Virus record (IMG/VR): IMGVR_UViG_2690316148_000014 | Source of the DNA: a virus | Lineage: Duplodnaviria; Heunggongvirae; Uroviricota; Caudoviricetes | Length of the DNA: 4,443 nucleotides | Direction: 5' to 3' (one strand) | In this document: piece by piece, positions 2,672-4,249 of the stretch | Numbering within the stretch: position 1 is the stretch's first letter | Layout: each line of letters opens with the position of its first letter | The notes under the pieces: generated by a model | Seen by the model: the letters and a program-made list of their open reading frames with translations, nothing else | Databases searched by the model: none | Told to the model about the DNA's origin: nothing | Position numbers and translations under genes: made by a program

Positions 2672-2706
2672 AACTCTTAAAGAAAGCCCTAACTCATGAT
2701 TAGGGC
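2672..2706 (-). terminator. Rho-independent terminator (first of a tandem pair)
   Basis: On the minus strand: GCCCTAA, loop TCATGAG, TTAGGGC (7-bp stem, 2706..2686), followed by TTTCTTTAAGAGTTTTT. No U-run follows the hairpin on the plus strand, so it is strand-specific. Confidence 0.55.
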
Positions 2707-2875
2707 AAAGCTGTAAAGGATTCAATAATGAATGAACAAAGACTTTTTGAGATAGCCTCTCAGACCAACCTGAAAGGCTAGGACGAAAAGCATTGCACCT
2801 TTCCAACTCAGAATATCCATCCATCGGATTATTGAAAGAAAAAATAAGAGAGAATTGCTCTCCCCCATATATACA

Positions 2876-2904
2876 ATTATGTCATGCTCAAGGTTGTTTG
2901 TCAA
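2876..2904 (-). promoter_or_regulatory. Sigma70-type promoter: -35 TTGACA, 17-bp spacer, extended -10 TGaCATAAT
   Basis: Minus-strand reading: TTGACA at 2904..2899, spacer aacaaccttgagcatga (17 nt), CATAAT at 2881..2876 preceded by TG. An A/T-rich stretch lies upstream. Predicted transcription start near 2869, reading toward the terminators and the gene at 2478. Confidence 0.55.
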
Positions 2905-3970: not shown

Positions 3971-4249
3971 TCAGACCTCCTGAGACAGTTTGTGAATTTT
4001 GATACTTAGTAACCTTGCTAAATCCAGTCCAAAAGCATTTAAGGATTTCAGACTATCAAGGTCATCTTGCTTAATCCTGATATGGTGTCTTGCAGCCTCT
4101 AAGCGACTATTAAGCAAATCCTGTTCGTTAATATCACGGTTAATTGCAAGCTTCATCACTGCTGAGTGTGGCAGACCTGTAATGTTTTTGATTCGGTTCA
4201 GTTCATCAAAGGCTGTCTTTGTAACTCTGGTTAATGTGTGTTTATTCAT
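3971..4249 (-). CDS. 92-aa putative ribbon-helix-helix (CopG/Arc-like) DNA-binding protein
   Basis: ATG at 4249..4247 with AGAGGA 7 nt upstream, directly after the upstream stop (TAAATG). The N-terminal RVTKTAFDELNRIKNITGLPHSAVMKLAI follows the beta-strand/helix/G-L-x-x-S-A/helix pattern of ribbon-helix-helix regulators (compare CopG ...MGLSKSAMISVAL, from memory). The C-terminal half is helical and charged. Confidence 0.7.
   Translation of the reverse strand: MNKHTLTRVTKTAFDELNRIKNITGLPHSAVMKLAINRDINEQDLLNSRLEAARHHIRIKQDDLDSLKSLNAFGLDLARLLSIKIHKLSQEV

Follow-up and report, generated by a model that had tools for sequence, protein, structure and literature searches.

A widespread structured leader RNA between a near-consensus promoter and serial terminators in a satellite-like island of Escherichia coli

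In the late leader of lambdoid phages (PR'-6S RNA-tR', with the antiterminator Q), the regulatory genes end at a strong sigma-70 promoter that is apparently constitutive, and a terminated transcript of about 200 nt, further terminators, and then structural-type genes follow; lambda uses a repeated −10-like element to pause polymerase. The c4 RNAs of P1 and P7 and the CI immunity RNA of P4 (Rfam C4, RF01695) are embedded in leaders, and their loops pair with downstream sites that include a Shine-Dalgarno (SD) sequence, heteroimmune types differing by matched changes. The put RNA of HK022 is a processive antiterminator that acts in cis and independently of protein, and in the lambda N leader and the early mRNAs of T7, leader hairpins processed by RNase III control translation. 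In Stx phages, transcription from the constitutive late promoter PR' terminates early, and the short transcript that arises as a by-product is the small RNA (sRNA) StxS (PMC7547250); the sRNA SviR of PLE, a Vibrio cholerae satellite of the virulent phage ICP1, acts on phage as well as satellite transcripts (10.1101/2022.04.08.487710). Here, we analyze a leader RNA within a 4,443-nt stretch of Caudoviricetes DNA (IMG/VR virus record IMGVR_UViG_2690316148_000014; referred to as a whole as "the window"), for which an initial annotation, made from the letters of the DNA, had proposed either a lambda PR'/tR'-like unit or an sRNA at positions 2672-2904.

The region is a non-coding structured RNA on the transcribed strand. 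It belongs to a known kind, the promoter-proximal terminated leader, and within that kind it is new, widespread, and unannotated. Its unusual additions are terminators in series with no Q protein, a hairpin that does not vary, and a further hairpin that sequesters the SD in a type-specific manner. The element most likely represents a non-coding transcription unit at the early/late boundary of a satellite-like island of ~12 kb. As judged from sequence comparison, we give about an even chance to the interpretation that a constitutive promoter yields a short stable RNA while serial terminators and a translational lock gate the downstream operon pending antitermination.

Promoter, terminators, and conserved RNA structure

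Relatives of the element were collected in two steps. A search with the two flanking proteins led to six IMG/VR loci, in all of which the promoter and the architecture are the same; the 20-mer GAAAGGTGCAATGCTTTTCG, common to all six, then led to 13 viral, 5 genomic, and ~100 metagenomic loci, with one locus in a Eubacteriales metagenome-assembled genome being dropped as a chance match. In total, 117 homologous leaders were collected, for all of which the presence of TTGACA was a requirement of extraction. BLAST against 5,426 complete E. coli genomes placed the region in 446 of them with a 571-nt query and in 402 with a 235-nt query (about 8%), always on the chromosome and in up to three copies per genome, and no annotation lies under the RNA in those genomes. 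The RNA also occurs in Shigella, E. albertii, Citrobacter, and gut metagenomes. No Rfam 15 family matched positions 2672-2904 at E values up to 10, including the C4/CI immunity RNA and known E. coli sRNAs; permissive thresholds returned only chance microRNA or snoRNA matches at or near the long hairpin described below, none of them at gathering score, and no match was obtained across the whole island at E values up to 0.1. No tRNA or transfer-messenger RNA was found, the leader DNA matched neither INPHARED cultured phages (near and distant mode) nor PLSDB plasmids, and no description of the island, or of the RNA by its sequence strings, was found in the literature.

All genes of the window lie on the minus strand, and the features given below by window coordinates are on that strand as well unless otherwise stated. 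The sigma-70 promoter (2876-2904) consists of TTGACA (2904-2899), a 17-nt spacer, and TG-a-CATAAT (2884-2876), with a predicted start near 2869. It shows 11 of 12 consensus matches together with the extended −10 TG and is the best site in the window, where 0.04 sites as good would be expected and where 8 of 200 shuffles contained any. These figures, and conservation among the 117 loci, bear out the near-consensus promoter that had been placed here by the initial annotation: the −10 reads CATAAT in 102 of the 117 leaders, and the 17-nt spacer is almost invariant. The promoter is probably constitutive for host sigma-70 RNA polymerase, as its sequence suggests. Upstream of it, a nearly invariant region (2905-2928 in the window) carries an A-tract (..AAUCUGUUAAAAGCUG) immediately before the −35; altogether, 45 nt upstream of the promoter, A-tract included, are nearly invariant across the 117 loci, and the transcribed part is mosaic. 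This upstream region may be an UP-like element or an operator. The pattern AAAAG-TGTTGACA recurs at several intergenic promoter-like sites of VpaE1, a member of the Felixounaviruses (86-90-kb virulent myoviruses). Directly after the −10, a −10-like hexamer is present in all three versions of the initially transcribed sequence (TGTATAT, TTTAAT, and GGTAAT), an observation that is weakened by the AT-rich sequence.

An antisense promoter-like site, TTAATA-17-TATAAT (10/12), is found on the plus strand at 2456-2484 and aims into the leader from the start of the gene at 2478. Its TATAAT is the complement of the AUUAUA that precedes the AUG and is absent from relatives with other start regions, and the site is probably incidental.

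The first of the terminators that follow the RNA, T2 (2676-2706), is an intrinsic terminator of the form GCCCUAAU-CAUGA-GUUAGGGC, with an 8-bp stem at 2706-2686 and then UUUCUUUAAG. Its hairpin is predicted at −11.4 kcal/mol, and with a start near 2869, +184 is the last position of the stem and about +191 that of the U-tract, in agreement with the terminator expected about 165-200 nt downstream by the initial annotation. T2 is kept in the type-I architecture, which comprises 75 of 104 unique leaders; a canonical hairpin with a U-tract follows the RNA in 104 of 117 leaders, and a terminator-type hairpin follows it in all. A second intrinsic terminator, T3 (2573-2609), has its hairpin at 2609-2579 (−14 kcal/mol) followed by UUUUCUU, with transcript ends predicted at about +288 to +295, and the terminator retained in the minimal variants L010 and L017 is one at the T3 position. 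The U-tracts of T2 and T3 are present on the minus strand only. Further downstream, between the genes for the 67-aa protein and the tape-measure protein, T4 consists of a 15-bp stem with 6 GC pairs and T6; it is found in 47 of 47 variants and is located at 21838-21873 of the island locus L027, the corresponding part of the window (within about 1340-1594) being N-masked. The promoter scan flagged no sigma-70-like site in the stretch from T3 to the ATG, nor in that from T4 to the tape-measure gene. Terminators in series, as T2, T3, and T4 are, are the design that processive antitermination predicts. A second conserved hairpin (GCUACGUGAAAU...AUUUACGUAGC) is found after T4, just before the tape-measure SD.

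The same arrangement might be read as an ordinary operon boundary, in which T2 and T3 end the small-gene cassette and the promoter serves the downstream operon through a long structured 5' untranslated region (UTR), with leaky read-through providing a low constitutive level and no special factor being involved. With no terminator separating the last small gene from the promoter, cassette transcripts must indeed end at T2/T3, and the single or weaker terminator of some variants, together with an anti-SD hairpin that alone could tune translation, would fit such a boundary. In every variant, however, one to two good terminators stand between the promoter and its only genes, with T4 in addition, which would be wasteful unless read-through is conditional, and the invariance of a hairpin within the RNA (H4, below) is left unexplained. 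We consider an ordinary boundary improbable.

The RNA itself begins with a 5'-terminal purine/pyrimidine hairpin, H1 (2844-2868; −10 kcal/mol), which in the window is followed by the U-run UUUUUUCUUUC (2843-2833) and therefore also scores as a weak terminator; relatives keep the hairpin, often without the U-run. All 32 sequence variants of H1 fold, 87% of cells being paired compared with 49-68% when partners are slid, and double changes are seen in 5 of 8 pairs. A variable 5' module (2804-2843) contains (GAUG)2-GAU at 2825-2815 in the window and is represented in relatives by alternative modules and optional inserted hairpins. The next element, H4 (2784-2803), is the invariant 20-mer GAAAGGUGCAAUGCUUUUCG, which folds into a hairpin of 7 bp, two of them G-U, around a GCAAU loop. 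An exact copy is found in all six loci reached via the flanking proteins, in 12 of 13 island loci reached via the Dit-like protein (the exception being disrupted upstream), and in the three most divergent BLAST matches (3/3), that is, in every intact locus retrieved without using H4. It is followed by H5 (2753-2780), a covarying hairpin of 11-12 bp and −17.1 kcal/mol, for which 93% of cells are paired in alignment A1 against 43-55% in slid controls; both sides change in 6 of 12 pairs, and its stems occur as five different sequences. In the helices of H5 and H1, G-U pairs are frequent and non-pairs are rare, and as G-U is tolerated and A-C is not, the structure under selection is that of the minus-sense transcript and not of DNA. 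Folding across homologues, which the initial annotation had named as a way to check its proposal, thus finds H1 and H5 to covary and the architecture of promoter and terminators to be present in relatives.

Downstream of H5, a conserved 3' tail (2707-2752) comprises AUCUCAAAAAGU, (CAUU)n, and UUGAAUCCUUUACAGCUUUG and pairs back to the 5' module in this variant. Past it, an AU-rich hairpin (2648-2686; −15.8 kcal/mol) uses the U-tract of T2 as its 5' arm and looks, from its sequence, like a degenerate copy of the junction between T3 and the long hairpin; a direct repeat, D1, joins 2570-2588 to 2674-2692. A sequence-conserved spacer (..CCUGAAACUUCGUUAACGUUAUAAGCAAACCUCC..) at 2610-2647 then leads to T3 and is missing from single-terminator variants. 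Taken as a whole, the 392-nt leader folds at −129 kcal/mol compared with −87 for shuffles (z = −8.1). H1 as a terminator, T3, T4, the AU-rich hairpin on the T2 U-tract, and the long hairpin with its anti-SD had all escaped the initial annotation.

Two other classes of element were considered and set aside for this region. A coding gene was rejected, the only sizeable open reading frame (ORF), of 56 aa, being intact in 1 of 98 unique variants, with the others having no ATG or a stop after 12-21 codons. A type III toxin-antitoxin system was likewise rejected, as there is no tandem array of 30-45-nt repeats and only a weak 13-nt array of 2.6 copies in the AU-rich hairpin, together with the tetranucleotide repeats; a PADLOC search with the downstream protein gave no match.

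The evidence for an RNA structure bears directly on a role at the level of DNA or replication, such as the priming or activation of an origin by the promoter-driven transcript, or the use of the hairpin-rich segment for packaging or recombination of the island. This is the largest hairpin-rich, AT-rich intergenic region, there is no recognizable replication protein in the island, and some virulent-phage origins, such as oriF and oriG of phage T4, use promoter-derived RNAs. Helices that tolerate G-U and not A-C nevertheless point to selection of the minus-sense RNA and not of DNA cruciforms, and the U-tracts are strand-specific. Terminators would moreover release a primer RNA, and attachment sites normally adjoin the integrase gene, which here is at the far end of the island. 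We regard a DNA-level role as very improbable indeed.

The invariance of H4 amid mosaic surroundings suggests an unvarying interaction partner, and it is conceivable that the element is a stand-alone, trans-acting sRNA, transcribed from a promoter of its own and ended by the terminator that also serves the upstream operon, as are sRNAs of the 3'-UTR type with their own promoter. Such an sRNA would act on host, island, or helper-phage mRNAs by pairing or via a protein bound at the invariant hairpin, and control of the downstream genes would be a separate matter. In keeping with this are the strong promoter, the protective hairpin at the 5' end, the conserved structure, the length of about 190 nt, and a U-rich single strand before a U-tailed terminator, and StxS (PMC7547250) and SviR (10.1101/2022.04.08.487710) provide precedents. 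Against it, duplex prediction with four conserved segments on 207 start regions of VpaE1 and 26 of the island performed no better than shuffled seeds, BLAST-short returned AT-rich chance matches only, and in relatives alternative modules take the place of most of the RNA outside H4, an unusual trait in an sRNA that works through a seed. A trans-acting sRNA is the main rival to the gate proposed below, a possibility that we take seriously while considering it rather unlikely.

The adjacent hairpins H4 and H5 also invite comparison with the put RNA of HK022. In a put-type cis antiterminator, H4 and H5 would bind the polymerase that made them and confer resistance to T2, T3, and T4 without a protein, perhaps depending on alternative pairings of GCUUUUCG, which can pair upstream (within H4) or with CGAAAAGU downstream of H5. 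As in put, two adjacent stem-loops come soon after a strong promoter and ahead of serial terminators. H4 is as invariant as contact with an invariant host enzyme would require, H5 keeps its shape only, and no antiterminator protein was found by family searches of the window and island proteins. If such an activity were constitutive, however, the terminators would be purposeless for any transcript crossing the element, so it would need to be conditional for them to make sense. In addition, the RNA has no Rfam match, and the alternative pairing contains a C-A mismatch in most variants and shows no covariation. We hold a put-type element to be more doubtful than an ordinary operon boundary.

Shine-Dalgarno pairing and the proposed gate

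Between T3 and the first downstream gene, a long hairpin (LH; 2503-2580) has a 22-bp lower stem and a predicted energy of −33.9 kcal/mol; its 5' arm starts in the U-tract of T3, and it ends 5 nt before the SD region. The first downstream gene has its SD region, ACACUUAGAGGA, at 2497-2486 and its AUG at 2478-2476 (2476-2497 together), and the anti-SD UCUUCUAAGUGU (2543-2532), carried by the apex of LH, is complementary to this SD region. Among the homologous leaders, LH occurs as five unrelated stem sequence types, all of them hairpins, with a median of 32 bp over 88 nt, and in every type 8-13 apical nt are complementary to the SD region of the first downstream gene. For 79 unique leaders, the cognate duplex of apex and SD has a median of −16.9 kcal/mol compared with −7.5 for a shuffled apex, and 0.06% of shuffles reach the cognate median. 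When types are combined in a matrix, the cognate diagonal lies at −14 to −18 kcal/mol and off-diagonal combinations at −6 to −13.7. This covariation of apex and SD across types shows that SD sequestration, or recognition of the SD by the loop, is under selection. The stem of LH is presumably also long enough for RNase III.

Both features have counterparts among described leaders. As in the c4 RNA of P1 and the CI RNA of P4, a leader loop is complementary to the SD of the next gene, matched specificity types exist, and an apparently constitutive promoter is combined with nearby termination; in contrast to those RNAs, there is no match to the C4 covariance model and no sign of processing into a separate small RNA, the anti-SD is downstream of the terminators and outside the short RNA, and the pairing could be purely in cis. 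The near-perfect stem of 22-32 bp immediately upstream of the SD, which it sequesters, similarly recalls the leader hairpins processed by RNase III, although the partner of the SD is in this case the apical loop and not the stem, and cleavage is putative.

In the gate that we propose, the strong promoter would fire at about 2869, and the nascent RNA would fold into H1, the invariant H4, and the covarying H5 before transcription stops at T2 (about 185-190 nt) or T3 (about 290 nt). By default, a short, 5'-protected, structured RNA would accumulate and the operon for the 236-, 102-, and 67-aa, tape-measure, and Dit-like proteins would be silent, and transcripts arriving from the upstream cassette would meet the same terminators. 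A polymerase that escapes would make the ~90-nt LH, the apex of which would pair with the SD of the first gene, and would then encounter T4 before the tape-measure gene. The operon would in this way be closed twice in transcription and once in translation. It might be opened by a terminator-resistant polymerase, by the opening or cleavage of LH, or by both, and the signal would probably arrive with a helper phage of the Felixounavirus type; alternatively, the invariant H4 might itself be the site at which polymerase is modified. Constitutive promoter activity, efficient termination, regulated read-through, and the identity of the trigger are the parts of this scheme that we infer.

A helper of this type is suggested by the gene content of the island. 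Its Dit-like protein is ~82% identical to the product of the gene that follows the tape-measure gene in Felixounaviruses, and its tape-measure protein is 31% identical to the Felixounavirus counterpart. As it carries these Felixounavirus-like tape-measure and Dit-like genes, the island looks like a satellite or parasite of virulent Felixounaviruses that has not previously been described. For the other island proteins, no phage homologue was found. The leader is absent from Felixounavirus DNA, where a covariance model of H4-H5 found nothing convincing, and in BLAST-short searches of VpaE1 the leader and promoter had no matches other than chance ones or ones to generic promoters. The likeness to SviR of PLE is that a non-coding RNA belongs to a chromosomal island with a large serine recombinase and a tie to a virulent myovirus; the two RNAs are nevertheless unrelated in sequence, comparison with the putative helper genome revealed no complementarity, and the status of satellite is here deduced from gene content. 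It could be speculated further that the leader is a helper-sensing switch of an E. coli/Shigella family of Felixounavirus satellites, in which H4 and H5 would be the site of terminator resistance, by a put-like contact with RNA polymerase that infection unmasks or through an RNA-binding antiterminator of the helper, T2-T4 would be crossed only on infection, and the anti-SD/SD types would give variant-specific translation. In this full form, we think the proposal unlikely to be right, on a par with the ordinary operon boundary.

The lambda PR'/tR'-like unit of the initial annotation survives in part. Agreement with it is found in the position of the promoter after the cassette, in the short transcript that the terminators would give, in the serial arrangement of those terminators, and in the lack of a flagged sigma-70-like promoter between them and the downstream genes, whereas a Q protein and a tail gene directly downstream do not. 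In common with the lambdoid late leader, the locus combines a strong, apparently constitutive sigma-70 promoter at the end of regulatory genes with a terminated transcript of about 200 nt, further terminators, and then structural-type genes, and the −10-like hexamer directly after the −10 may be a further, weak likeness. In contrast to it, no Q-like gene is detected and the upstream neighbor is predicted to be tandem ribbon-helix-helix-like; covarying structure and an invariant hairpin are present, which a mere by-product transcript would not need; an anti-SD translational lock occupies a position at which lambda has none; and the carrier is a 12-kb island related to virulent Felixounaviruses and not a lambdoid prophage.

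Several observations weigh against the proposed gate. In 13 of the 117 leaders, the U-run is displaced by 4-6 nt and the U-tract is poorer, and 13 leaders have a weaker −10 (GATGAT). Neither the invariance of H4 nor the conserved structure would be needed by a plain gate, and both hint at an extra function. As the initial annotation had remarked of Q-like proteins, no match to an antiterminator family (Q, N, or other) was found with Pfam, PHROG, or NCBIfam in the proteins of the window or the island; the antiterminator may be encoded by the helper phage. The 107-aa protein encoded directly upstream looks in its predicted model like a tandem ribbon-helix-helix-like DNA binder, which more often means repression of promoters. 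Finally, tail-type genes had been said to begin about 190 nt beyond the terminator, but the gene at 2478 is not recognizable as a tail gene and the tape-measure gene starts at 1315, so that the late or structural label is secure only from the tape-measure gene onward.

Neighboring genes and the island

When the window is read from 4443 towards 1, the small-gene cassette, which includes an HNH_3-like protein of 90 aa (3968-3696), is followed by the 107-aa gene (3317-2994), directly upstream of the promoter and encoding the candidate DNA-binding regulator. A 21-codon hydrophobic ORF (MELVIICFVLIGMIAGASIKV; 2994-2929), which is unannotated, overlaps through TAATG with the stop codon of the 107-aa gene, and 25 nt separate its end from the −35; at this site, relatives have either the 21-codon peptide or an unrelated hydrophobic 25-mer (M[GT]LII/VILW..GLFVGCWVGNTVNKN). 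The intergenic region of 450 nt (2928-2479) then separates this ORF from the first downstream gene, with its ATG at 2478, and the tape-measure gene starting at 1315 is assigned by PF20155 and several tape-measure PHROGs. Because stretches of the window are N-masked (1245-1260, 1340-1594, and 1618-1865), separate genes are fused into artificial ORFs, including several all-X ORFs and an ORF of 381 aa after 2478; in unmasked relatives, the latter corresponds to three genes of 236, 102, and 67 aa.

The 107-aa protein is identical to an E. coli/Shigella sonnei protein found on 322 contigs, has no family matches, and is an orphan with 18 representatives. Its AlphaFold2 (AF2) model (predicted local distance difference test [pLDDT] score of 79) shows two beta-alpha-alpha units, and the PDB entries that match it best, though weakly (E 0.08, TM about 0.45), are small chains of the F-plasmid relaxosome, which we take to be TraY, a tandem ribbon-helix-helix protein. 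DNA binders of the ribbon-helix-helix type are usually promoter repressors. The 92-aa protein (3971-4249, minus strand; L027 18761-19039) gives a weak DndE-like match (NCBIfam TIGR03184, E 0.0027, far below cut-off) and has an N-terminal strand-helix-helix pattern, so that the cassette is a candidate for holding two DNA binders of this type, the 92-aa and 107-aa proteins. Downstream of the leader come three orphan genes, of 236, 102, and 67 aa. Searches of Pfam, PHROG, NCBIfam, and PADLOC with the 236-aa protein (P0139; 1870-2478, minus strand) gave no match, and cultured phages have no homologue of it; its AF2 model is poor (pLDDT of 64) and consists mostly of long helices, and its RefSeq name, transposase, looks unfounded.

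Three loci represent the island (L027 14700-31000, L025, and L026). It measures ~12 kb, insertion sequences not counted, and in annotated E. coli genomes it lies in yecE or between yciI and tonB. Its order begins with an HNH-AP2 protein on the other strand, a divergent promoter pair, and genes of 185, 92, 71, 95 (HNH), and 107 aa; it continues with the hydrophobic peptide, the RNA, genes of 236, 102, and 67 aa, and T4; and it ends with the tape-measure gene, the Dit-like protein, and a large serine recombinase on the other strand. No capsid, packaging/terminase, or replication genes are recognizable in it. The near-consensus divergent promoter pair upstream of the 185-aa gene (L027 18086-18151) is outside the window, and about 1.5 kb to its left (L027 16626-18203) is without annotation. 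The rightward member of the pair, the cassette promoter, reads TTGACA-17-TGcTAGTAT (L027 18123-18151), and TGTATATAT follows it and the RNA promoter alike; polymerases starting at either would have T2, T3, and T4 ahead of them on the way to the tape-measure and Dit-like genes.

Module mosaic and biological meaning

The 5' half of the RNA exists in 92 different versions among the 117 complete leaders. Its mosaic parts are three initially transcribed sequences, several H1 stems, an optional 27-nt hairpin insert, and three alternative 5' modules, to which an optional second hairpin, five H5 stems, and five unrelated LH sequences are added further along, as are three terminator architectures (T2 with T3, a single terminator, and a variant terminator). 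The association between modules declines with distance, as recombination would give, and a functional coupling of the 5' hairpin with the long hairpin, which had been considered, was rejected on the ground that module association merely decays with distance. Variants of the 3' tail combine freely with 5' modules. A multibranch closing stem at 2836-2721 was also found to be unsupported, the 5' module being swapped in relatives without compensating changes in the 3' tail.

Copy numbers of the tetranucleotide repeats vary between loci (L049, L054, and others), with 2-5 copies of (GAUG)n and 1-3 copies of (CAUU)n (2815-2825 and 2725-2740 in the window, respectively). As the two repeats are complementary to each other through G-U pairs, slippage would shift the stem in register. 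Islands also differ in whether their RNA leader or their T4/tape-measure leader contains a small palindromic insert of ~27 nt (GAGGATAG-TCTT-CTATCC.. or GAGATAGGTTCTATC..; L019 at about 6370-6400; L001, L002, L005, and L008 upstream of the tape-measure gene), whose behavior is that of a miniature mobile hairpin module.

About one complete E. coli genome in twelve contains the RNA, yet it is unannotated and without an Rfam family. Among the regulatory elements of an uncharacterized island with a tape-measure gene of its own and a copy of a Felixounavirus tail gene, it is the most conspicuous. As a natural data set, the mosaic of modules and the matched anti-SD/SD types are useful for studying how RNA structure evolves under recombination. 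If the RNA is a trans-acting sRNA, it would be a widespread accessory regulator in pathogenic E. coli and Shigella. If the leader is instead a gate, it would add a case of serial-terminator control without a Q-type protein, and if that gate opens on infection, the sensing of a virulent phage by a chromosomal island would become directly accessible to experiment.

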